Both the position numbers and the translations under genes were made by a program. A stretch of 64,000 bases of DNA from an uncultured Candidatus Saccharibacteria bacterium. GTDB taxonomy: Bacteria > Patescibacteriota > Minisyncoccia > Phycocordibacterales > DSPV01. The stretch lies in the NCBI GenBank assembly GCA_964617735.1, contig CAZTXT010000001.1, positions 12,260 through 76,259 on the forward strand. The letters are read 5' to 3'. The notes beneath the pieces were generated by a model. That model was not told the DNA's origin. It was given only the letters and a program-made list of their open reading frames with translations, and did not search any database. Shown piece by piece: positions 1-57,027 of this stretch (the stretch's first letter is position 1; every line of letters starts with the position of its first letter).

Positions 1-2091
1 GCCGGGGTGGTAGGGCGTGCGACCTACAACAGCTTGACCGTTGCGCTTGGCATTGGCTATTTCATGTTCCCGTTGATCCTTTTCCTCTACGGCATCGCAT
101 CACTCAAAGACTTGCACCGGAAGCTATCGACGCTCAAGATTGTGGCAGCGATCATTTTCTTCCTCTCGGGACTCGCTTCGATCGAGGTCATATTCACGGG
201 GCAAGGTGGCTTGGTGGGAAAGCTCTTGGCACTACCCTTCCTCAAATTATTCGGCGTCATTGCGACACCACTCCTCCTTATTACGGTTTTGATAATTTGC
301 GTACTGATCATTTTAGACACCGGTATCAATATCACTCCCCTTATCCAACTACTGAAACTCCCGCTCTTCTCAAAAAAAGATCGGGTGAAGGTTAAGAACG
401 CGATGCAATCAAGCGAAGAGCCAGAAGAGGAAAGCGTAGAGGAAACTAACGAAGAGGATACGGGTGATAGGGCACTCGACGAGCCTGACGAGGGCGAGCG
501 AGAAGTGAAGGTCAATGCACCGATCGCCGCGAAGAAAGCTCCGGGGGGAGAATTTGCAGTCAGCCAGCAGAAGTTCAGACACACCAAACATGTGTTCGAA
601 CCCGTACCGTTGAGCCTCCTTGAAAAAGACCGCGGAACACCCGGGGTCGGAGACATCAAAGGTAACGTTAACATCATAAAACGAACGCTCCAAAATTTCG
701 GCATCGACGTGGAAATGGATGAGGTGACTATCGGACCGACCGTAACGCGCTATGCGCTCAAGCCCGCTGAAGGAGTCAAACTCTCGCGCATCGTCGGACT
801 GCAAAACGACCTCTCGCTGGCGCTCGCCGCCCACCCCTTGCGCATCGAAGCTCCGATCCCCGGCAAGTCGCTGGTCGGCATCGAGGTCCCCAACAGCACC
901 AAGTCGACCGTAGGCCTCGCATCAATGCTCTCCGACGAAGAATTCAAGAAGCCTGAAAAGCCGCTCTTGGTCGCGCTCGGCAAATCGATCGCGGGAAGCG
1001 GTATCTTCGGCAACCTCGCTAAAATGCCTCATCTCCTTATCGCGGGAGCCACCGGATCCGGAAAATCCGTTACGATACATGGCATCACCACTTCCCTGCT
1101 CTATCGCAACTCGCCTGAACAGCTTAAATTCATCATGATCGACCCCAAACGTGTCGAGCTCACGCTCTACAACAAAATTCCCCATCTGCTCACGCCGGTC
1201 ATCACTGAAGCCAAAAAAGCCATCCTCTCGCTCAAGTGGGCCGCGAAAGAAATGGACCGCCGCTATGACATTCTCGAGGCGGAATCGGTCCGAGACATCG
1301 ACTCGTATCATAAAAACGTCCTGATGCCCGCACTCAAGAAAATGGAAGGCAAGGAAAATCGAGTGGATGGCGATTCTCCCAAAATACCCGAGACGATGCC
1401 CTATATCGTCATTGTCATCGATGAATTGGCAGATATCATGTCCACCTATCCGCGCGAGCTAGAAGCGGCCGTGGTGCGCATCGCGCAAATGAGCCGCGCG
1501 GTCGGCATCCATCTGATCCTCTCCACTCAAAGACCGAGCGTCAACATCATCACGGGTCTTATCAAGGCCAACATCCCAGCCCGCATCGCCTTGCAGGTCT
1601 CCTCGCAGATCGATTCGCGTACCATACTCGACACCGGCGGCGCGGAGAAGTTGCTCGGCGCAGGAGATCTTCTCTATCTTTCGGGCGATATGTCCAAACC
1701 ATCGCGTCTGCAGGCGCCCTTCATCTCCGAAACCGAAGTTAAAAAAGTCGTCAAATTTCTCGTGGATTCTTATTCGGATATGCTCTCCGATGAGATCAAT
1801 TTCGCCGAAGGCGATGCCGATCAGAACATACTTTCGATGAACCTCGACGACACCTCCCTTGATGATGAGGACGATCTCTATGAGCAGGCGCGCGATGAGG
1901 TCATCCGCGCCGGGAAAGCTTCGACCTCATACCTCCAGCGAAAGCTCTCGGTCGGCTATTCGCGCGCCGCGCGCCTCATCGACCTCTTGGAAAAACGGGG
2001 CGTCATCGGTGCGGGACACGGAGCCAAACCCCGTGAGGTCATCGGTGCCCCGACTCCTCAAGAAGACGCCGAGCATGCGGTAGAACCCTGA
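1..2091 (+). CDS. ftsK: DNA translocase FtsK/SpoIIIE (5' end probably truncated by window start)
   Basis: N-terminal TM helices, Walker A AGATGSGKS, Walker B VIVIDELAD, C-terminal winged-helix gamma domain (YLQRKLSVGYSRAARLIDLLE). Frame is open from nt 1; first in-frame start is GTG at 7. Confidence 0.9.
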   Translation, partial: AGVVGRATYNSLTVALGIGYFMFPLILFLYGIASLKDLHRKLSTLKIVAAIIFFLSGLASIEVIFTGQGGLVGKLLALPFLKLFGVIATPLLLITVLIICVLIILDTGINITPLIQLLKLPLFSKKDRVKVKNAMQSSEEPEEESVEETNEEDTGDRALDEPDEGEREVKVNAPIAAKKAPGGEFAVSQQKFRHTKHVFEPVPLSLLEKDRGTPGVGDIKGNVNIIKRTLQNFGIDVEMDEVTIGPTVTRYALKPAEGVKLSRIVGLQNDLSLALAAHPLRIEAPIPGKSLVGIEVPNSTKSTVGLASMLSDEEFKKPEKPLLVALGKSIAGSGIFGNLAKMPHLLIAGATGSGKSVTIHGITTSLLYRNSPEQLKFIMIDPKRVELTLYNKIPHLLTPVITEAKKAILSLKWAAKEMDRRYDILEAESVRDIDSYHKNVLMPALKKMEGKENRVDGDSPKIPETMPYIVIVIDELADIMSTYPRELEAAVVRIAQMSRAVGIHLILSTQRPSVNIITGLIKANIPARIALQVSSQIDSRTILDTGGAEKLLGAGDLLYLSGDMSKPSRLQAPFISETEVKKVVKFLVDSYSDMLSDEINFAEGDADQNILSMNLDDTSLDDEDDLYEQARDEVIRAGKASTSYLQRKLSVGYSRAARLIDLLEKRGVIGAGHGAKPREVIGAPTPQEDAEHAVEP

Positions 2092-3776: not shown

Positions 3777-4376
3777 ATGAAAAACACGCTTATACAAGTA
3801 ATTCGGGTCATCTGCTTCATCCTTATATCTATAGGTTTATACCCCTTTATACAACTAGTCCTGTGGCTTTTTTCAGGTGACCTTGATGCTGGGATATTTG
3901 TGTTTGCGCTCGAGTCAATCCTACTCTTCATTCTCCCGATTCTTGTAGTTATATTTGTTCATCCTGTGCCGAAGATGGCGGAAGGCATCCCTCCGGCGGA
4001 GTTGTCCGCACAAATTGCCGCGGTCCGAAAGAAACAACGCAAATTCAGTTTGGCTCTGATTGCTGGCACGACTTGGCTTGGCCTTTTGTTTTTCTCTCTC
4101 ATGACTCTTTTCTTTACAGGACTCGCAGGATCAAACGGGCGTGATGTGTATATACTCCCCCTCGCTTTATTTCTGACAATGTTGTTTTTACCTCCCGTGG
4201 TCGGTTTTTATATACTCATCCGTAACATAATTAATAGACACAATAAAGCGGCTGAGCAAAAGACAGCGACTCAAGGTGTAGTAGCTGTTCCATGGGTATT
4301 GATATTAATTGGGGTTGCTATAACATTTTTGTTCATCTGGGTTGCTGTCTCGGCATTTTTAAATCCTCATCCATAA
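3777..4376 (+). CDS. hypothetical multi-pass membrane protein (AT-rich, probably horizontally acquired)
   Basis: 4-5 hydrophobic segments, low GC, preceded by RBS-like GGAGAGGA. Confidence 0.5.
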   Translation: MKNTLIQVIRVICFILISIGLYPFIQLVLWLFSGDLDAGIFVFALESILLFILPILVVIFVHPVPKMAEGIPPAELSAQIAAVRKKQRKFSLALIAGTTWLGLLFFSLMTLFFTGLAGSNGRDVYILPLALFLTMLFLPPVVGFYILIRNIINRHNKAAEQKTATQGVVAVPWVLILIGVAITFLFIWVAVSAFLNPHP

Positions 4377-18440: not shown

Positions 18441-18478
18441 ACAACCAGCGCCTGGGCTTGGGGCCCAGGCGCTGGTTG
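18441..18478 (-). terminator. strong terminator downstream of the major pilin gene
   Basis: Perfect 15-bp inverted repeat AACCAGCGCCTGGGC-ttgg-GCCCAGGCGCTGGTT followed (minus strand) by a T-rich tract. Confidence 0.7.
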
Positions 18479-27245: not shown

Positions 27246-27276
27246 GCGGCGCTCCTCCTCGGAGCGCCGCTTTTTT
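27246..27276. terminator. bidirectional rho-independent terminator between purB and ileS
   Basis: 10-bp GC stem GCGGCGCTCC-tcctc-GGAGCGCCGC followed by TTTTTT. Confidence 0.8.
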
Positions 27277-30200
27277 ATTTCAATTCGAAATCGCCGGAGG
27301 AGAGGACGCCGTGGTTTATTTTTGAAAGTGACGCAGATTTCTTGATTTCAGATTCAAACTCCTGAAGCAGCCCTGTCGCGGCGACCGATGAAGAAGTTGA
27401 GAGAATTGCGGACTGGCCGGGCTTGAGCCCTTTTTGCTTGCGCAACTCTTGAATAGTGCGGATGGCTTCGCGCAAATCCCCTTCCCGCTTGAGCGCAGGA
27501 GTTATGGCGGTATCGAGCTCAACGTCAGTAGCGAGTTTCGCATCGACGACTATTTCTTTTACATTCACCTCGTCGAGGATGAGCTCTGGTGCAGAGACTT
27601 TCGTTTTTATCGTGAGCTTGGCGAGCGGCTGGCGAACATTGATCTTGGTTTTGGCGCGAGTCTCAAGCGCACGTGAGACGATGTCGCGTACAACCTTCAT
27701 GTCCGCAATAACCGACTGGTCCACCCGCTTCGCTTCTGGCCAATCTTCAAGATGAACGCTTTCTCTCGCTCCCCCCGCATTTTTGTAGAGATATTCCGCA
27801 AAGAATGGCGTGAACGGGGCCATCAGCTTGCTCAACCCGATGAGTATTTCTCGCAAGGTCGCGAGCGCTGCCGCTTTGTCCTTTTCGTCATCGCCCTTGA
27901 TGCGCTCGCGTGAGCGGCGCAGATACCACTGCGAGAGATCCTCGATAAACTCGCGAATGGCGCGTGTCGGCTCAAGGAGCTGGAATGCATCCAGGCGCTT
28001 GGTCACTTCAAGCGTAAGCTCGGAGAGCCGTGCGAGTATCCAGCGATCGAGGACGTCGACTGGGCTAGGAATTGAAGCGGTCTTTTTGTCCTCTGGTGCA
28101 TATAAGAGATAGAACGAGAGAACGTTTGCGGCAAGATTGAAAACTTTTTTGACCACTTCATCCACCGTGCGCTCATCGAAATTCTTCGCCTCGCCGGGCT
28201 GGTTGACCGAGTACATCCAGAAGCGTAAGGGGTCCGCGCCGTACTTTTCTATAGCGAGCCACGGGTCAACGGTGTTGCCGAGGGATTTGCTCATCTTCTT
28301 TCCCTGCGCATCGAGAATATGACCGAGGCAGATGACATTTTTGTACGCTTTGCCCTTGCCCATAAGAATTCCTACCGCATGAAGGGTATAGAACCACCCA
28401 CGCGTCTGATCGATCGCTTCGGAGATGAAATCGGCTGGATACCCTTGTGCCTTGTGAAAAAAGCTGGAATCAATGCGCTCCCGATTTTCAAAGGGATAGT
28501 GTTCCTCGGCGAACGGCATCGCTCCCGAATCGAACCAGACGTCCATCACCTCTTTGACGCGCTCCATCTCGCCACCGCAGTGGTCGCAGACGAGCTTTAC
28601 CGCATCAATGTACGGCCGGTGCAAATCGAGCTCGAAATTTCGGTTGCGCGGAATCCGGCGCCATTTCAATTCTTTGATGGCTGAGTTTTGCATAAACAGC
28701 TTCCCCTTCGGCCTTACGGCAAGGGACTGGGATACGTCAAAACCTTCTGCAGCCGAGGTCATCATCCACAATGGACCGTCGTGGCTGACGATGAGAACAT
28801 TCTTGCCGGCATAGGCCGCGTCGACTTCTTGGAGAAAAGATGCGACCCTTGCCTTAATCTGCAAGCGGCCCTCGATACCCCGAGCGTTTTGATAGAAATC
28901 CTCCGAGCGATTGATAAATAAATTGGAGAGCTCGGCGCTCGGCATACCTTCAAGCTCACCAACGCCCATTTCACGGAGTCGCTCGTCGAAAACTATTTTC
29001 TCTTGGGGGATGCCGAGCCTCTCTGCGATTATCCCTGCAGTTTCTCTTGTACGCTGAAACGGCGAAGAGAAGATAACATCGATATGCTGACGGGCAAGAA
29101 CCTCGCCCGTAGCTTTCGCCTGCTCTATCCCCTGTTCGGTCAACGAGTACGCCTGGCTGCGATCCGAGTTGAGTACTCGCTCGACATTATTTTTCGCTTC
29201 GGCATGACGCACCAAATAGAAATGCGCCCCGTCGCTTTTGCCCTCTATGTCGGCAACCGAGCCAGCCACTTTCTCTCTGTGGCATTTCCCACACTTCCAA
29301 ACCGGAAGCGGTGTTCCCCAGTAGCGTTCACGAGAGATCGCCCAGTCTTTTATTTCGCGCAGCCACTCGCCGAAGCGACCGTCTTTGATGTATGACGGTT
29401 CCCAGTTGATAGTCTGATTCTCGGCGACGAGCTTGTCTTTGAGCGCGCTCATCTTGATGTACCACGAGTCGCGCGCGAAGTAGATGAGCGGTGTGTGGCA
29501 TCGCCAACAGAAGGGATAAGAGTGCTGGTATTTTTCTTTATCAAAGAGAAGCCCGCGCCCAGCGAGATCTTTGATGATGGCGACATCAGTCTCGGGATCT
29601 TTGACGAACTTTCCCGCGAGAAAGCCGGTTTCTTCTTTGAAGGTCCCATCGTCTTTGACGAGGTGTTGTTTCGGAAGTCCAACCTTCGTGCCAAGTTCAA
29701 AGTCATCCTGTCCATACATCGGCGCAATATGGACGATCCCGGTGCCGTCGGCAGTCGTCACGAAATCTGCCGCGTACACTTTGCATGCCGTTCCGTTTGT
29801 TTTCATAAAGGGATAGATCGGCTCGTACTGACCGCCGACCAGATCTTCACCGGAAGCGAATACTTTGAATACTTTGTATTTTTTATCTTTCAAAACCGAA
29901 AGACGTTTGGTCGCAAGAATAAGACGCTCTTTTGTCTCTTCGAGCTCAACTTCGGTGTATTCGATCTTTGCCCCTACCGCGAGTGCGACATTGCCCGGAA
30001 GCGTCCAGGGAGTGGTCGTCCACGCCAGAAGATACGTGTTGTCTTTCCCAACAACTTTGAATTTCACATAGACCGAGAGATCTTTGACATCTTCATACCC
30101 TTGCGCGAGCTCGTGGGATGAGAGCGCAGTACCACAGCGCGGGCACCACGGCACGACTTTGTAATCCTTGTAGAGTAAGCCTTTGCCGTGAACATGCTTG

Positions 30201-30706
30201 ACGATATTCCAGAGTGACTCGATATACTGCGGTTGGTAAGTGATGTACGGATTTTTAAGATCAACCCAGTAGCCGATACGATTGGTGAAATCAGTCCACT
30301 CATTCACATGTTTCCAAACACTCACACGGCAATGCTCGTTGAACTCGGCGATACCGTATTTCTCGATTTCTTTTTTTGATTTGAGCCCGAGCTCTTTTTC
30401 AACCTGGAGCTCCACCGGAAGCCCATGCGTATCCCACCCGCCCTTGCGAGGGACTCGGTAGCCGCGCATCGTCTTGTAGCGAGGAATCGCATCTTTGAAT
30501 GCCCGCGCCTCGAGGTGATGGATGCCAGGCTTTGCATTTGCCGTCGGCGGCCCTTCGTAGAAAACGAATTCTTTACCACCGTTGTTTTTCTCCAGTGACT
30601 TCTCAAAAATCCCCTCTTTCTGCCAGAAGGCTAGTATTTCCTCTTCCTGCTGAACAAGTTTATTTTTTGGCTTTTCATCCATAAAAAAATGCCAGAATGG
30701 AGCCAT
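27275..30706 (-). CDS. ileS: isoleucine--tRNA ligase carrying an inserted histidine-phosphatase (PGAM-family) domain
   Basis: IleRS hallmarks: HIGH-like PGIHH, editing-domain WTTTPWTLPGN and GTGIVHIAPMYGQDDFELG, YPFCWRCHTPLIY, DLHRPYID...WFDSGAMPF, KMSKSLGN. Between the CGKC zinc-knuckle and DLHRPYID, where family members have ~30 aa, lies a ~200-aa block with LVRHAE, SSPFQRTRETA, ERLREMGVGELEG and SHDG. Start taken at MAPFWHFFMDEKPKNK (30706) or MDEK (30682); the upstream 85 codons of the computed ORF are not protein-like. Confidence 0.85.
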   Translation of the reverse strand: MAPFWHFFMDEKPKNKLVQQEEEILAFWQKEGIFEKSLEKNNGGKEFVFYEGPPTANAKPGIHHLEARAFKDAIPRYKTMRGYRVPRKGGWDTHGLPVELQVEKELGLKSKKEIEKYGIAEFNEHCRVSVWKHVNEWTDFTNRIGYWVDLKNPYITYQPQYIESLWNIVKHVHGKGLLYKDYKVVPWCPRCGTALSSHELAQGYEDVKDLSVYVKFKVVGKDNTYLLAWTTTPWTLPGNVALAVGAKIEYTEVELEETKERLILATKRLSVLKDKKYKVFKVFASGEDLVGGQYEPIYPFMKTNGTACKVYAADFVTTADGTGIVHIAPMYGQDDFELGTKVGLPKQHLVKDDGTFKEETGFLAGKFVKDPETDVAIIKDLAGRGLLFDKEKYQHSYPFCWRCHTPLIYFARDSWYIKMSALKDKLVAENQTINWEPSYIKDGRFGEWLREIKDWAISRERYWGTPLPVWKCGKCHREKVAGSVADIEGKSDGAHFYLVRHAEAKNNVERVLNSDRSQAYSLTEQGIEQAKATGEVLARQHIDVIFSSPFQRTRETAGIIAERLGIPQEKIVFDERLREMGVGELEGMPSAELSNLFINRSEDFYQNARGIEGRLQIKARVASFLQEVDAAYAGKNVLIVSHDGPLWMMTSAAEGFDVSQSLAVRPKGKLFMQNSAIKELKWRRIPRNRNFELDLHRPYIDAVKLVCDHCGGEMERVKEVMDVWFDSGAMPFAEEHYPFENRERIDSSFFHKAQGYPADFISEAIDQTRGWFYTLHAVGILMGKGKAYKNVICLGHILDAQGKKMSKSLGNTVDPWLAIEKYGADPLRFWMYSVNQPGEAKNFDERTVDEVVKKVFNLAANVLSFYLLYAPEDKKTASIPSPVDVLDRWILARLSELTLEVTKRLDAFQLLEPTRAIREFIEDLSQWYLRRSRERIKGDDEKDKAAALATLREILIGLSKLMAPFTPFFAEYLYKNAGGARESVHLEDWPEAKRVDQSVIADMKVVRDIVSRALETRAKTKINVRQPLAKLTIKTKVSAPELILDEVNVKEIVVDAKLATDVELDTAITPALKREGDLREAIRTIQELRKQKGLKPGQSAILSTSSSVAATGLLQEFESEIKKSASLSKINHGVLSSGDFELK

Positions 30707-30734
30707 TCTAGCATTTTGAACATGTTTTTGAAAT

Positions 30735-31067
30735 TTACCCGTTGAGGTGGCGGAAAGTCGAGACAACGTGTTGCCACGCAATGAGGTTAGCGACAAACGG
30801 TATCGCGACCTGATGTGTGAGCAAGCCTTCGAGGTCTCTGACCTGATCGAGGGCAGACTTGAAGGTGCTGATGAGTATCGAATACTCATCCAACTGTTCG
30901 CTGTTGAGCTTTGCGCACAGCTCGCTATCGTCCTCCTTGGCAAATCTAACCGCATTATCATAAGCGACGCTAAGTTGCTGCTCTCGCTCGGTTTCGGAGA
31001 GTCTCAAGAATTTTCTTGAGAAAACCTCGGTGATTATCTGTGGATTCGTAATATCAAGAGTATTCAT
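30735..31067 (-). CDS. hypothetical protein (~110 aa)
   Basis: Start taken at MNTLDITNPQ; the upstream part of the computed ORF overlaps a strongly structured non-coding element. Confidence 0.4.
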   Translation of the reverse strand: MNTLDITNPQIITEVFSRKFLRLSETEREQQLSVAYDNAVRFAKEDDSELCAKLNSEQLDEYSILISTFKSALDQVRDLEGLLTHQVAIPFVANLIAWQHVVSTFRHLNG

Positions 31068-31123
31068 TATGGAGACCTTTCTGATGACAAGGTTACTCTG
31101 CGGAATTAATTTGTCAAAACACG

Positions 31124-31242
31124 AATCCGCTGAAAATCGATGAGGTGCGAGGCGCGGGCGAGAAGAGAAGTGAGCCATAGGAAACCTATGGTGAACGAGC
31201 ATCTCAGCCCGCAACAAAGCAGGTCGCGATTTTCAGCGGATT
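31124..31242. ncRNA. candidate structured RNA (~120 nt; closing 16-bp perfect helix, internal GC helices and apical hairpin). Class undetermined: small SRP-like RNA, sRNA or cis-regulatory leader.
   Basis: AATCCGCTGAAAATCG ... CGATTTTCAGCGGATT pairs perfectly across ~85 nt; internal GCGGGCGAGA/TCTCAGCCCGC helix and CCATAGG-aaa-CCTATGG hairpin. Sits 3 nt after the argS stop and upstream of ileS on the minus strand. Confidence 0.4.
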
Positions 31243-31245
31243 TTG

Positions 31246-32967
31246 CTACATCTTCTCCGGAACCTTGATACCCAGAAGCCACAACCCGTTGGTCATCACG
31301 GTTTTGAAGCTTCTGGTGAGCGCAACACGATACGGAGCGGTTTTTTCTTTCGCATCGGCGATCTGACGCTCGCCATAGTAGCGATTGAAGGCGGATGAGA
31401 GCTCGAGGAGATAGGTTGCGATGATATTCGGAGAAAGTTCACTCGCTGCGCGCGCTACGATGTCGGGGAAATGGGCGATGAGCCGCTCGACATCGGAGAT
31501 CGGCTCGAGAGCGGCGAGCGCGGCTGTCGCGCTCGCCGCGACCTTCGCCTCCTGTGCTTTTTTAAGGACCGACTGCGCCCGCGTCGCTGCGTACTGCAGA
31601 TACGGTCCCGAGTCGCCCTCAAGCGAAACTGATTTCTCAAAATCAAACACGATATCGCTGCCGATGGACTGTTTCAAGATGAAATACTTGAGCGCAGCGA
31701 TGCTCACCTGCTCGGTTATCTCCTCTTTTTCTGTATCGCTATATCCTCGGTCCACAATCTTTTCGCGCACTAAGTCAGAGATGCGCGCGATGAGCGCATC
31801 GGCAGTGATAATGTCGCCGCTGCGCGACGACATCTTTCCTGATGGCAGACGGAGCATCCCATGCGAGATGTGAACGGTCTTCTCCGCGAGCTTGGGAAGA
31901 ACCAGCTTCATGGCGGCTAAGAGAACTCGGAAATAATCGTTGACTTCATTGCCAGTCACGACGACCGAGCGGTCATATTTCCATTGCTCATATTTCATCT
32001 CTGCAAGGCCGAGTTCCTTTGCCTCGTAGGTCGGTATGCCCTGCGAGTTGATGAACACGCGGGTGTGCAGCTTAGGATCGTGTTTCTGTGCGTGAAAGAC
32101 CACGGCGCCGTCGCTCTTCTCGAAAATCTTCTTCTTGAGGCCTTCGTTGACAACCTTCATCCCCGTCGGGCCAGCCTCGCTTTCGAAGAAATAGAAATCG
32201 AACTTCGTGTCGAGGCGTTTATATTGCATCTCAAAATAGTCGAGTGAGACTTTCCGACCCCAGTCATAGAACGTATTGACCTCGCTATCGCTCCTCTCGT
32301 AGATCTTATGATTGAGCTTCTCGATATCTTCTTTATGGCCGTCTTCGTACGCCGCCGCGCCGAGCGCATACGCATGCCCGAGATAGCGCGCCTGCGCCTC
32401 AAGTCCCAGATTCTTTAAAGGGCTCTTGTCGCGATTCGGAACGCTCTGCATTCCCCAGATGGCTTTCGCAACATGAAGGCCAACATCGCCCTGATAGCAC
32501 GCTCGCTTAACATCTACTCCTTGTGCCTGAAAAAGTCTCGAGACCGATTCGCCGATTGTATTACTCATCAAATGGCCAATGTGAAATTCTTTGAAGGGGT
32601 TGGGGTCGGTGTACTCGACCATCACTTTCTCCTTTTTATCCGCTGTGCTCCAGCCAAAGTCTTTATTGTTCACTGCTTCGGCCAAGATTTCCGAGAAGTA
32701 TTCGCGCGTCAAGAATATATTGATGAATCCGGGCCCGGCGACCTCTACAGCGGCAACGCCGGCGATGTTCGCCGCGCGAATATCGCCGGCGATTTCCTCC
32801 GCAAGTTTTTTTGGGTTTGTTTTAAGAGTCTTTGCAGCAGTGAGCCCTACGTTCGTCGTTAAATCGCCGTTTACAAGATCTTCCGGCCGCTCGACGGAAA
32901 AACCAACAGAACCCGCACCCCGTGCGGACAGTATTTTCTGCAAGACCCTTTCAATAGTTTGTTTCAT
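31246..32967 (-). CDS. argS: arginine--tRNA ligase
   Basis: HIGH motif FHIGHLMSNTIG, KMSK-like MSSRSGD, C-terminal DALR anticodon-binding domain (...YLLELSSAFNRYY); 573 aa. Confidence 0.95.
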   Translation of the reverse strand: MKQTIERVLQKILSARGAGSVGFSVERPEDLVNGDLTTNVGLTAAKTLKTNPKKLAEEIAGDIRAANIAGVAAVEVAGPGFINIFLTREYFSEILAEAVNNKDFGWSTADKKEKVMVEYTDPNPFKEFHIGHLMSNTIGESVSRLFQAQGVDVKRACYQGDVGLHVAKAIWGMQSVPNRDKSPLKNLGLEAQARYLGHAYALGAAAYEDGHKEDIEKLNHKIYERSDSEVNTFYDWGRKVSLDYFEMQYKRLDTKFDFYFFESEAGPTGMKVVNEGLKKKIFEKSDGAVVFHAQKHDPKLHTRVFINSQGIPTYEAKELGLAEMKYEQWKYDRSVVVTGNEVNDYFRVLLAAMKLVLPKLAEKTVHISHGMLRLPSGKMSSRSGDIITADALIARISDLVREKIVDRGYSDTEKEEITEQVSIAALKYFILKQSIGSDIVFDFEKSVSLEGDSGPYLQYAATRAQSVLKKAQEAKVAASATAALAALEPISDVERLIAHFPDIVARAASELSPNIIATYLLELSSAFNRYYGERQIADAKEKTAPYRVALTRSFKTVMTNGLWLLGIKVPEKM

Positions 32968-37809: not shown

Positions 37810-38434
37810 AAAAGAAATTCTGAAGCGCATACGAACGAACGATCTGCGCTTCAAGCCAGCGCTCGACTCGTTCCAGTTGCATGACCACGTCGTGGACTTG
37901 CGGCTGGGATTCACCTTTCTTATTCCAAAAACCTGGCGGCTGACGCCGAAGGGTCGGGAGACGGTGACCATAACCCACTTCAACAAAACAGGCCTGCAAT
38001 ATTTCGACGTCGTCGAACTGGAACAGGGGCAATACTTCGAGCTGCTCCCCCACGAGTACGTTATCGTTTCAACCCTCGAAACCATCACCGTTCCCAACGA
38101 CCTCATGGCAATCCTCTATCCCCGCTCCTCGACAAACCGCAAAGGGCTTTCACTCGACTTAACGGGCGTCATCGATTGCGGTTATGAAGGCACCTTGGCA
38201 CTTCCCGTGCGCAACAATACCGAGGCCCAAGTTGTGCGGCTCTACCCGGGTGAGCGGATCTGTCAGGTCGCATTCGAAGAATTGACCGAGGCGGTCGCAA
38301 CGCCGCACAAGCACAAATATCACCAGAAAGATATCATCGAGGGCGTAGGAAAGGAGAAAAACGCCGAAGCGACCCTCATTATGAAAGGAGACATTGACGG
38401 ACTTAAAAAACGCTACGGGATAGAGAGGATGTAA
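37793..38434 (+). CDS. dcd: dCTP deaminase/dUTPase-family protein (catalytic-Glu position not conserved; possibly a dUTPase-type enzyme)
   Basis: Dcd/Dut-fold motifs: PRSSTNRKGLS matches GRSSLARLGL, IDCGYEG matches IDPGWSG; the Glu of the dCTP-deaminase VLEF motif is absent. Confidence 0.7.
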   Translation: MSVLTKKEILKRIRTNDLRFKPALDSFQLHDHVVDLRLGFTFLIPKTWRLTPKGRETVTITHFNKTGLQYFDVVELEQGQYFELLPHEYVIVSTLETITVPNDLMAILYPRSSTNRKGLSLDLTGVIDCGYEGTLALPVRNNTEAQVVRLYPGERICQVAFEELTEAVATPHKHKYHQKDIIEGVGKEKNAEATLIMKGDIDGLKKRYGIERM

Positions 38435-38437
38435 AAA

Positions 38438-38468
38438 CGGTCTTCGCGTAGACGCGAAGACCGTTTTA
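38438..38468. terminator. bidirectional rho-independent terminator
   Basis: CGGTCTTCGCG-taga-CGCGAAGACCG followed by TTTT; flanked by A-run. Confidence 0.8.
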
Positions 38469-39447: not shown

Positions 39448-39488
39448 ACGGCATACAAAATCACCATTTAAGAATGGTGATTTTGTAT
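39448..39488 (-). terminator. perfect 17-bp hairpin immediately downstream of rplK
   Basis: CATACAAAATCACCATT-ctta-AATGGTGATTTTGTATG. Confidence 0.45.
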
Positions 39489-39506
39489 GCCCAGTATCTT
39501 ATTCTG

Positions 39507-49067: not shown

Positions 49068-49099
49068 AAGCCCCTGGTGGAATTAATTCCACCAGGGGC
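49068..49099 (-). terminator. terminator hairpin (perfect 15+15 palindrome) downstream of the 146-aa gene
   Basis: GCCCCTGGTGGAATT/AATTCCACCAGGGGC, with a T-rich tract on the minus strand. Confidence 0.6.
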
Positions 49100-49125
49100 T
49101 TAGTGTAAGAGGTATTTCCTCGTTG

Positions 49126-49680: not shown

Positions 49681-49752
49681 TGCTCCCGGCAGGAATCGAA
49701 CCTGCATCTTCTCCTTCGGAGGGAGATGTCCTATCCATTGAACTACGGGAGC
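49681..49752 (-). tRNA. tRNA-Arg (anticodon CCG)
   Basis: Manual fold: acceptor GCTCCCG/CGGGAGC, D stem GTTC/GGAC, anticodon stem TCTCC/GGAGA with loop CU-CCG-AA, T arm GCAGG-TTCGATT-CCTGC, discriminator A; 72 nt, CCA not encoded. Confidence 0.85.
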
Positions 49753-55922: not shown

Positions 55923-56975
55923 TTACGGAACGAGCGAACGCTCTGAAACCAGCACCGAGACTTCCGATACGACGAAGGCGTGGTAGACGCAATAGATGCC
56001 GGCGATGAGTATGAGCAGCATGATGACTATGATCGTGTGACGAGTTCGTTTGTCATGCCGAACCACAAGCACCGCCGCGAGCACGAACAAAAGCAGAAGG
56101 CTGATGATGATGTAGGCAATCGCGAGCAGATGTGTGGGACTCGATACGAGGTGCTCGAGACGCGAGGCGTACTGGGGTGGCGCAGATACAGGAGCAACAG
56201 AGACGTCGCCGGATGGCTCTTTATTTTCGACGGCGACGAACGTCTGACTACTCGATTCACCCAAGACTGTTGAAGAAGCGACGGGAGTGGGCCGGGGAAT
56301 TGAAGCAGTAGTGGACGCTGTCGGCTTCTTCGCTAACGATGCCGAAACCGCGCTTTGGGTCACTGCCGCGACCGATGCTGGTCGTGGAGTGCCGAACATT
56401 TGGACCACAAACAGCGTGTCGTGCCCTTCATAGACGCCGCGCGCCGTGGCGATGCCGATCTCTTTGAAATGCTCATTGAGGATATTGGCACGGTGAGACG
56501 GAGAATCCATCCATGCCGTATTGACCGCAGCGGAATCGTCGAAATAAACCGCCAAATTCTCTCCGGCATACGAGAATTGATAACCCGCCTTCTTGATCCA
56601 ATCCCATGGGCTCGTCCCGTCGGGGCCGTAGTGCGCAAAATATCCCTTGGCCGCCATATCATCCGCTTTCATCTGGGCGGCCTGTGCAAGCTCAGAGTTC
56701 ACCGAAAGCGAGCCGAGCGCAAAACCCGCGCGATCGGCGTTGGCAAGGTCAACCAGTACCGCAGGGAGAACCGTCGCAAAAAAGTCCGAGGTTCTAAGAA
56801 CGATCCGCTGTATCTGTGATGCGAAAAAAGCCCCGAGGATGAATACGAGGACGAATGCGACTCCCGCCGCGCGCAACAGATACGGCCTGAAGCTGTTGCT
56901 CTCATGCGGCACCACGTATTTCCTCGCTAGTCGTTTCATAAAAGTGATTATGCAATAAAGACCTCCGAAACGCAA
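55923..56975 (-). CDS. CAP/SCP/PR-1-like domain protein with N- and C-terminal TM anchors
   Basis: CAP signature elements (HYGPDG...GENLA...W.DSPSHRANIL); Ser/Thr/Pro linker and C-terminal TM. Confidence 0.65.
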   Translation of the reverse strand: MRFGGLYCIITFMKRLARKYVVPHESNSFRPYLLRAAGVAFVLVFILGAFFASQIQRIVLRTSDFFATVLPAVLVDLANADRAGFALGSLSVNSELAQAAQMKADDMAAKGYFAHYGPDGTSPWDWIKKAGYQFSYAGENLAVYFDDSAAVNTAWMDSPSHRANILNEHFKEIGIATARGVYEGHDTLFVVQMFGTPRPASVAAVTQSAVSASLAKKPTASTTASIPRPTPVASSTVLGESSSQTFVAVENKEPSGDVSVAPVSAPPQYASRLEHLVSSPTHLLAIAYIIISLLLLFVLAAVLVVRHDKRTRHTIIVIMLLILIAGIYCVYHAFVVSEVSVLVSERSLVP

Positions 56976-56976
56976 A

Positions 56977-57004
56977 GCCCGTCCCGACCTAGGTCGGGAC
57001 GGGC
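56977..57004 (-). terminator. terminator hairpin downstream of the 57028..60249 gene
   Basis: Perfect 13-bp stem GCCCGTCCCGACC-ta-GGTCGGGACGGGC. Confidence 0.5.
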
Positions 57005-57027
57005 TTGATTAGATCGGACGGTTGAAC

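Follow-up and report, generated by a model that had tools for sequence, protein, structure and literature searches.

An uncatalogued palindromic hairpin family with two known members, behind argS and behind tsf

ERIC (IRU), Correia (CREE) and RPE elements are imperfect palindromes of 100-170 bp that lie in transcribed intergenic regions, often beside stop codons, and form RNA hairpins affecting mRNA processing or stability. What defines these families is a high copy number together with conserved termini, to which Correia elements add a TA duplication; RPEs are found in reduced genomes, and one of their reading frames can stay open. Integron attC sites are imperfect inverted repeats of 57-141 nt in which structure and not sequence is conserved, and they are recognised as folded single strands and directly adjoin small, unrelated and often orphan ORFs. 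REP sequences close to stop codons reportedly cause ribosome stalling, a point that we do not use as evidence. REPINs are long hairpins in which compensatory changes have been described as common (Bertels and Rainey, 2011; PMC3116915), and it is as hairpins of single-stranded DNA that they are believed to work, though they give rise to transcripts as well (PMC3116915).

Here we report an uncatalogued palindromic hairpin family with two known members of about 119-125 nt, each made of a 105-nt core and a variable, perfectly paired outer helix. One member lies behind argS in the window (the whole 64-kb stretch of DNA that was analyzed), and the other behind tsf on a metagenome contig, L082. Like REPINs, the element is an extragenic hairpin of about 100 nt with conserved blocks near both ends and compensatory changes in its stems. 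Unlike REPINs, which occur in tens to hundreds of copies together with a RAYT transposase, it was seen just once in the 64 kb; in addition, the short REP palindromes that form the ends of REPINs are not evident, and the interior of the element is conserved too. One of its frames (s2) is open throughout, as in RPEs, but many copies, conserved termini and a TA duplication are not seen; the likeness to ERIC, Correia and RPE sequences is one of description. With 4.5S SRP RNA it shares the shape of a rod-like hairpin of about 115 nt with paired ends, although 4.5S SRP RNA has conserved apical loop motifs, whereas here the apex is the least conserved part and there is no Rfam match.

The element differs from attC sites in that it has no R''/R' core (RYYYAAC...GTTRRRY), its ends being AATCCGC...GCGGATT in the window and AAGAGTTTGG...CCAAACTCTT in L082, and in that each locus holds a single hairpin, not an array, with the hairpin upstream of the orphan ORF. 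Its perfect terminal inverted repeats (16 bp in the window, 19 bp in L082) resemble those of a MITE; however, the two copies are unrelated in their outermost 7-10 bp, and conservation starts 7 bp inside the arm. No direct repeat that could represent a target-site duplication is present in the flanks (GTAGCAA|...|CGTGTTT in the window and GGTTTGG|...|GGAATAA in L082), and a palindromic duplication would hide in the arms. Finally, as with MITE, REPIN, ERIC and RPE sequences, the element shows presence or absence at orthologous sites, being absent in six relatives, and is present at a non-orthologous site, behind tsf.

The hairpin and its neighborhood

In the window, argS, a small ORF and ileS are neighboring genes, all on the minus strand. 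The argS gene (31246..32967) encodes an arginine-tRNA ligase of 573 amino acids with all three ArgRS domains in Pfam, and ends in a UAG stop codon (31246-31248). The hairpin (119 nt, 31124..31242, on the minus strand like the flanking genes) begins 3 nt past this stop and is followed, after 56 nt, by the ATG (31067) of the small ORF, in line with the 3 nt and about 60 nt given in the original prediction. The space after argS amounts to 178 nt (3 + 119 + 56), or 59 nt without the element.

The two arms, 31124-31139 (AATCCGCTGAAAATCG) and 31227-31242 (CGATTTTCAGCGGATT), are complementary at 16/16 positions across an 87-nt spacer, which bears out the perfect 16-bp closing helix proposed earlier; the inner GC-rich helices (31154-31163/31202-31212) and the apical hairpin (31175-31181/31185-31191) described with it are likewise present. 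The hairpin exists and exceeds chance: we calculate that chance alone would give about 0.005 perfect inverted repeats of 16 bp, spaced within 300 nt, per 64 kb, and this is the sole perfect inverted repeat of at least 16 bp with a long spacer in the window, all others having loops of at most 5 nt. The 119 nt form a single rod-like hairpin, in which 39 pairs form when it is read in the argS sense and 42 on the other strand. As RNA, the argS-sense (minus) strand folds at -57.2 kcal/mol (z -5.5) and the opposite (plus) strand at -65.9 kcal/mol (z -7.5), and 0/200 shuffles matched the native folding energy on either strand. As single-stranded DNA, the hairpin folds equally well on both strands (z -6.3 to -7.3). 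The same sequence, 100% identical, was present in Logan assemblies of other runs (SRR12313480 and SRR12313479; L001 and L081), and for this reason we take the hairpin to be no assembly artefact.

The inverted repeats with short loops form a separate set in the window. Perfect palindromes or hairpins of 16-21 bp with loops of 0-5 nt were found at 49068-49101, 39450-39491, 18442-18478, 38434-38467 and 56975-57006, some of them flanked by A/T runs, and are probably bidirectional terminators. The first of these, a 34-bp perfect palindrome (49068-49101), has a tRNA gene (49681-49752) at a distance of about 580 nt.

The small ORF (30735..31067, minus strand) encodes an all-helical protein of 110 amino acids and has gene-like codon usage, its score being reached by just 0.4% of non-coding frames. 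It has no homologue except itself among 5.8 billion proteins and no family match in Pfam, NCBIfam or PHROG, and a fold search with its single-sequence AlphaFold model (pLDDT 69, helical) gave nothing at E<=0.001. The idea that it encodes a DNA-binding protein acting on the arms of the hairpin was dropped. Its codons 7-15, approximately, contain a third arm-like segment (31024..31049, minus strand) that is complementary at 20/26 positions to 31121-31146, that is, to the sense-strand 3' arm and neighboring bases. This is the sole match of at least 19/26 in the 64-kb window, and 0/2000 shuffles reached 20/26. The duplex between the third segment and the 3' arm has an energy of -22.4 kcal/mol, compared with -25.3 kcal/mol for the two arms, and in constrained folds with the 5' arm blocked the predicted pairing switches to the third segment. 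The L082 copy has no counterpart of this segment, which may act as a local switch, be left over from an element end or resemble a target. Just past it, the small ORF also contains a hairpin of 9 perfect bp (TCTCAAGAA/TTCTTGAGA, 2-nt gap; 31002-31021, minus strand).

Directly 3' of the hairpin is a TTGACA hexamer (31112..31117, minus strand), which is TTGATA in L082. Judging by its sequence, TTGACA could be the -35 box of a promoter for the small ORF, with a weak -10 box TAACCT (31090-31095) 16 nt onward; the consensus promoter scan did not call this pair. The ileS gene (27275..30703, minus strand; identified by Pfam) has its own promoter-like site (TTCAAA-16-TAGAAT, with TG before the second hexamer; 30703-30732, minus strand), whose first hexamer starts at 30732 and whose second ends at 30705, and of which TGCTAGAATGGC is common to the window and L008 (about 3795-3815). 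Since this site overlaps the first ATG of the longest ORF, ileS probably starts at a later Met (MDEKPK...) or is translated from a leaderless mRNA. IleS itself has a complete histidine-phosphatase domain (His_Phos_1, E 2e-37, residues 495-660) inserted in its class-I catalytic domain. The same architecture is found in five syntenic relatives (L002 7143-10526, L003 7238-10921, L009 4838-7770, L010 5137-7716 and L012 3708-6183), and the insertion is thus a lineage trait. The Pfam scan on which these assignments rest covered argS, ileS, the small ORF and three upstream genes.

A second copy behind tsf

A spurious ORF of 58 amino acids runs through the whole element (31106-31282, minus strand), and we used its translation as a query against 1.84 billion representative proteins. 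The search returned P0123, with 63% identity over 38 residues, and P0122, a tandem-repeat ORF of 585 amino acids that we judged spurious. P0123 is a gene call on L082, a 1,031-bp ENA metagenome contig, in which the element had been read as an N-terminal extension.

On this contig, a hairpin with 19-bp perfect arms (167-291) begins 6 nt past the UAG stop of tsf, of which the C-terminus is present (EF-Ts, PF00889, 33.4 bits, cut-off 27); 39 nt beyond the hairpin comes an ORF that starts with ATG and has no Pfam family and no match in the window. The orientation of the hairpin relative to the flanking genes is identical in both copies. The ORFs downstream of the two hairpins have no detectable mutual similarity. 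Elsewhere on L082, at about 786-900 (plus strand) and upstream of tRNA-Thr (954-1028), there is a tRNA-like start (GCCGCCTTAGCTCAGCTGGTA...) into which about 60 nt of G+C-rich, internally repetitive sequence are inserted; neither ARAGORN nor Rfam called this stretch a tRNA.

The two hairpins share a core of 105 nt (TGAAAATCG...CGATTTTCA; 31131..31235, minus strand) that aligns to L082 177-281 without gaps, at 78% identity (E 8e-21), so that it has the same length in both copies; its internal loops and bulges are conserved. Beyond this core we detected no similarity between the window and L082. In each copy, the core sits at the exact center of a perfect palindrome. It is in the basal half of the hairpin that the conserved blocks are found, and the conserved strings within the core are GAAAATCGCGAYCTGCTTYGTTGC and GCGCCTCGCANNTCATCGATTTTC. 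At its outer end, over 7 bp in the window and 10 bp in L082, the closing helix has unrelated sequences in the two copies and yet is perfectly paired in both; in the window, this variable helix consists of AATCCGC on the sense 5' side (31236..31242) and GCGGATT on the sense 3' side (31124..31130), both on the minus strand. The apical hairpin (31175..31191, minus strand; 7 bp and a 3-nt loop) keeps its stem in L082 through one compensatory change, and its loop differs in sequence and size, reading UUU in the window and AUUCA in L082 in the argS sense (AAA and UGAAU on the opposite strand).

To describe the pairing, we aligned the two sequences and folded the sense strand with RNAalifold, which gave 39 pairs. 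Each of these forms in the window and in L082 alike: at 10 of them both partners were replaced, a change of one partner alone never occurs, and there is no broken pair. When the 3' partner was slid by 1-3 columns as a control, 35-42% of cells were paired, against 100% in the true register. The 20 differing columns among the 78 paired ones correspond exactly to 10 complementary pairs (P ~5e-15 under independent substitution). Among the 41 unpaired columns 11 differ, and the bulges and small internal loops are unpaired in both copies; the retention of these mismatches argues against plain homogenisation of the two arms of a DNA palindrome. As far as two sequences with few independent substitutions can tell, the comparison shows pairing under selection.

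The element starts 3-6 nt past a stop codon with no terminator in between, and its sense strand is almost certainly transcribed. In the window as in L082, folding of the opposite strand is more favorable by about 9 kcal/mol, and this strand has two conserved G.U pairs and one change from G.U to G.C, compared with one conserved U.G pair on the sense strand. In the window, the promoter scan found no consensus promoter before the element on either strand; in L082, it found one promoter-like site inside the element, which is not kept in the window copy. The terminator scan called nothing at the element in the window or L082, and there is no shared terminator-like tail: the window has GUUUUG (a U4 run) 4 nt after the stem, and in L082 no U-run adjoins the stem. 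Programmed read-through of the argS UAG was also considered and rejected, as the in-frame continuation stops after 13 codons.

Known RNA families, syntenic relatives and further copies

A search of the whole window against Rfam 15 at the gathering threshold returned two tRNAs only. When 30950-31400 was searched at E<=10, two chance matches to box C/D snoRNAs appeared (E 1.8-8.4) and none at E<=1, and on L082 Rfam gave nothing on the element. The covariance models of SRP RNA (RF00169), 6S RNA and the T-box (RF00230) did not match the element either. The loop and internal-loop motifs of SRP domain IV are not conserved, and the apical loop varies between the window and L082; with no Rfam match to set beside this, the suggestion of an SRP (4.5S)-like RNA is not supported. 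We also rejected a TIGR or box C/D guide RNA, as the CUGA and GAUGA-like strings in the window are unconserved in L082 and lie inside perfect Watson-Crick helices of a single unit; following the definition of TIGR systems in PMC12045711, no Tas or Nop gene is adjacent here, the neighbors being argS and the orphan ORF.

Named homologues of ArgS belong to Candidatus Taylorbacteria, Paceibacterota and Parcubacteria, the best match outside the same organism being just 63% identical. A search for ArgS among the contigs of GTDB representative genomes found no relative, which places the species outside that set. Six relatives (L002, L003, L008, L009, L010 and L012), in which ArgS is 61-64% identical, retain the neighborhood, with the gene order SHMT, thymidylate kinase or HAD hydrolase, argS, (small ORF) and ileS. 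In 6/6 of these, the space after argS is 33-76 nt and contains no long inverted repeat or hairpin. Given that six relatives have no hairpin and that 59 nt are left in the window on its removal, the element appears to be a lineage-specific gain of about 119 nt at the argS junction. Its absence from the six, together with a second copy behind tsf, also means that it is no ileS- or argS-specific conserved regulator, which disposes of the proposed attenuator or riboregulator for ileS. The relatives have no terminator after argS, and two have one only after their own small ORF.

The two checks that had been suggested for the original prediction, a cmscan search and conservation in relatives, were thus both negative: no Rfam family lies on the element, and syntenic relatives do not conserve it. 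The reading as a structured element survives only because a non-syntenic homologue was found. What stands of the structured RNA first proposed is a structured nucleic-acid element, with 10 compensatory pairs and none broken, and not the specific identities then attached to it.

The argS-ileS junction is in its own right a hotspot of small orphan ORFs. Those of the window (30735-31067, minus strand), L002 (6782-7051) and L012 (3235-3504) have no detectable mutual similarity; L003 has an ORF from about 6853, and L008, L009 and L010 have none at this junction.

Further copies were sought in several collections. In the 64-kb window, arm search, blastn, nhmmer and an unfiltered covariance model all detect one copy only, and the relatives' loci (about 60 kb) hold none. 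A profile of the three translated frames, searched against the 5.8-billion-protein set, again returned P0123 only. A two-arm pattern gave two matches among metagenome contigs, both on foldback-palindromic contigs with unrelated interiors, which we regard as artefacts. Large foldback palindromes make up the metagenome contigs L006 (2600-3020; L006 being wholly mirrored) and L007 (1-160); these are probably assembly chimeras and give false matches for any two-arm inverted-repeat pattern. The arm pattern had 67 single matches in GTDB genomes, from unrelated phyla and with no partner arm or extended similarity, and we attribute all of these to chance. Four scans of viral contigs gave 0, 0, 0 and 28 matches, against about 23 expected by chance on a rough estimate, and none passed the covariance model. 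By blastn there was no match among PLSDB plasmids or INPHARED phages, neither of which collects ERIC, Correia or RPE families. These searches targeted the variable arms or were very indirect, and two members are thus the known minimum, not evidence that the family is small.

Origin and possible function

We tentatively favor, with a probability of about 0.42, a non-autonomous palindromic hairpin element of the REPIN, ERIC, RPE or Correia kind, or a descendant of one, that is transcribed together with the upstream gene and forms a stem-loop at the 3' end of its mRNA. This Parcubacteria/Paceibacteria-type lineage would have acquired the element downstream of the argS stop codon and ahead of the next gene, and its pairing may have been kept since the single-stranded hairpin would be the form that is recognised and propagated. 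Transcribed at the 3' end of the argS mRNA as a very stable stem-loop, it could protect the upstream mRNA or act as a processing site, and would set the argS mRNA apart from the separately promoted downstream genes. Mobility, co-transcription with argS and an effect on the mRNA are all steps that we infer.

A hairpin that is absent from the argS junction of six relatives, and yet present behind tsf, a non-orthologous site, in L082, points to mobility, as do the pairing kept by 10 double changes, the single-stranded DNA folds that are equally good on both strands and the lack of a matching Rfam family; the unrelated but paired outer helices fit insertion into, or hairpin-templated copying of, flanking DNA. 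However, the repetitiveness of such elements is not seen (one copy in 64 kb and none in about 60 kb of the relatives' loci), no target-site duplication is visible, and the family has only two members, with few independent substitutions. Its termini are moreover the least conserved part and its interior loops are conserved, a pattern contrary to that of a classical MITE and well suited to a functional RNA. In both copies, too, the stop codon of a gene for translation immediately precedes the hairpin and a small ORF follows at 39-56 nt, which could reflect function and not mobility. The main rival, which we consider possible but rather unlikely, is accordingly a dedicated, non-mobile structured RNA, either a cis-acting intercistronic element (a signal for stability or for RNase III-type processing, or a rod in a 3'-UTR or leader that binds protein) or a small RNA gene on either strand, whose interior loops would be functional sites and whose closing helix would be free to covary. 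Perfect covariation with conserved bulges and internal loops, a core of identical length, a shared orientation and context (3-6 nt past a UAG and 39-56 nt before a small ORF) and the single copy in 64 kb are all consistent with such an RNA, as are the stability of the non-argS strand (about 9 kcal/mol greater in both copies) and its G.U pattern (two conserved and one G.U to G.C, against one U.G). Against a dedicated RNA speak its absence from a junction conserved in six relatives, flanking genes that differ and downstream ORFs that are dissimilar, the lack of a consensus promoter in front in the window and of a common terminator-like tail, an apical loop that is unconserved and a structure that no Rfam family matches.

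If the upstream gene had simply evolved, in place, an intrinsic terminator or 3'-end stabiliser of unusual length, this would explain why the hairpin begins 3 nt (argS) or 6 nt (tsf) past a stop, and would agree with its very stable helix, the GUUUUG 4 nt after the stem in the window and the promoter-like sites that the downstream genes appear to have of their own. Still, we think it improbable: the elaborate argS terminator of the original prediction fits no intrinsic terminator in either copy, as the scan calls none and L082 has no adjacent U-run; the terminator-like hairpins of the window have short stems and loops of 0-5 nt, several with A/T flanks; relatives do without a terminator after argS; and a terminator needs neither 105 nt of conserved sequence nor conserved loops, nor would 78% identity be expected behind unrelated genes. 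For the window copy alone, a ribosome-sensing switch can be imagined in which a ribosome terminating at the argS UAG would cover the 5' arm and free the 3' arm to pair with 31024-31049 and alter translation of the small ORF. The unique 20/26 complementarity (0/2000 shuffles), the duplex energies (-22.4 vs -25.3 kcal/mol for the arms) and the alternative pairing adopted when the 5' arm is blocked would allow it. Yet L082 has no equivalent segment, so that a switch is not the cause of conservation in the family, and the segment, known from a single sequence and hence without covariation, could equally be an element-end remnant or target-like; we consider such a switch very improbable. Hardly credible, lastly, is a known RNA gene overlooked by eye (SRP/4.5S, 6S, T-box, TIGR or box C/D) or a protein-coding sequence. 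The rod-like shape, a size near that of 4.5S RNA, a frame open in both copies and the faint box C/D snoRNA matches (E 1.8-8.4) are set against the lack of any Rfam family at E<=1 on the element in the window or L082, the variable apical loop, the unconserved CUGA and GAUGA-like strings buried in Watson-Crick helices and the absence of an adjacent Tas or Nop; as for coding, the substitutions track base pairs and not codons, and the frame that continues into the downstream ORF differs between the copies.

Beyond the palindromic mobile element that we favor, a bolder and in our opinion unlikely proposal is a new class of hairpin element in the Candidate Phyla Radiation (CPR), either a structured RNA or a mobile element acting as a single-stranded DNA hairpin, that would land at the center of palindromes immediately past the stops of translation genes, with the unrelated small orphan ORFs beside both copies co-travelling as hairpin-marked cassettes of a non-integron type.

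The alignment of the two sequences and its covariance model can serve directly as a query when genomes and metagenomes are surveyed. The non-coding elements of Patescibacteria (Candidate Phyla Radiation), which have small genomes and few repeats, are almost unexplored. If the hairpin is mobile, it would be a first glimpse of a palindromic element family in these bacteria and would bear on how orphan genes are inserted between housekeeping genes; if it is an RNA, it would be a new structured motif at the 3' ends of mRNAs of the translation machinery.
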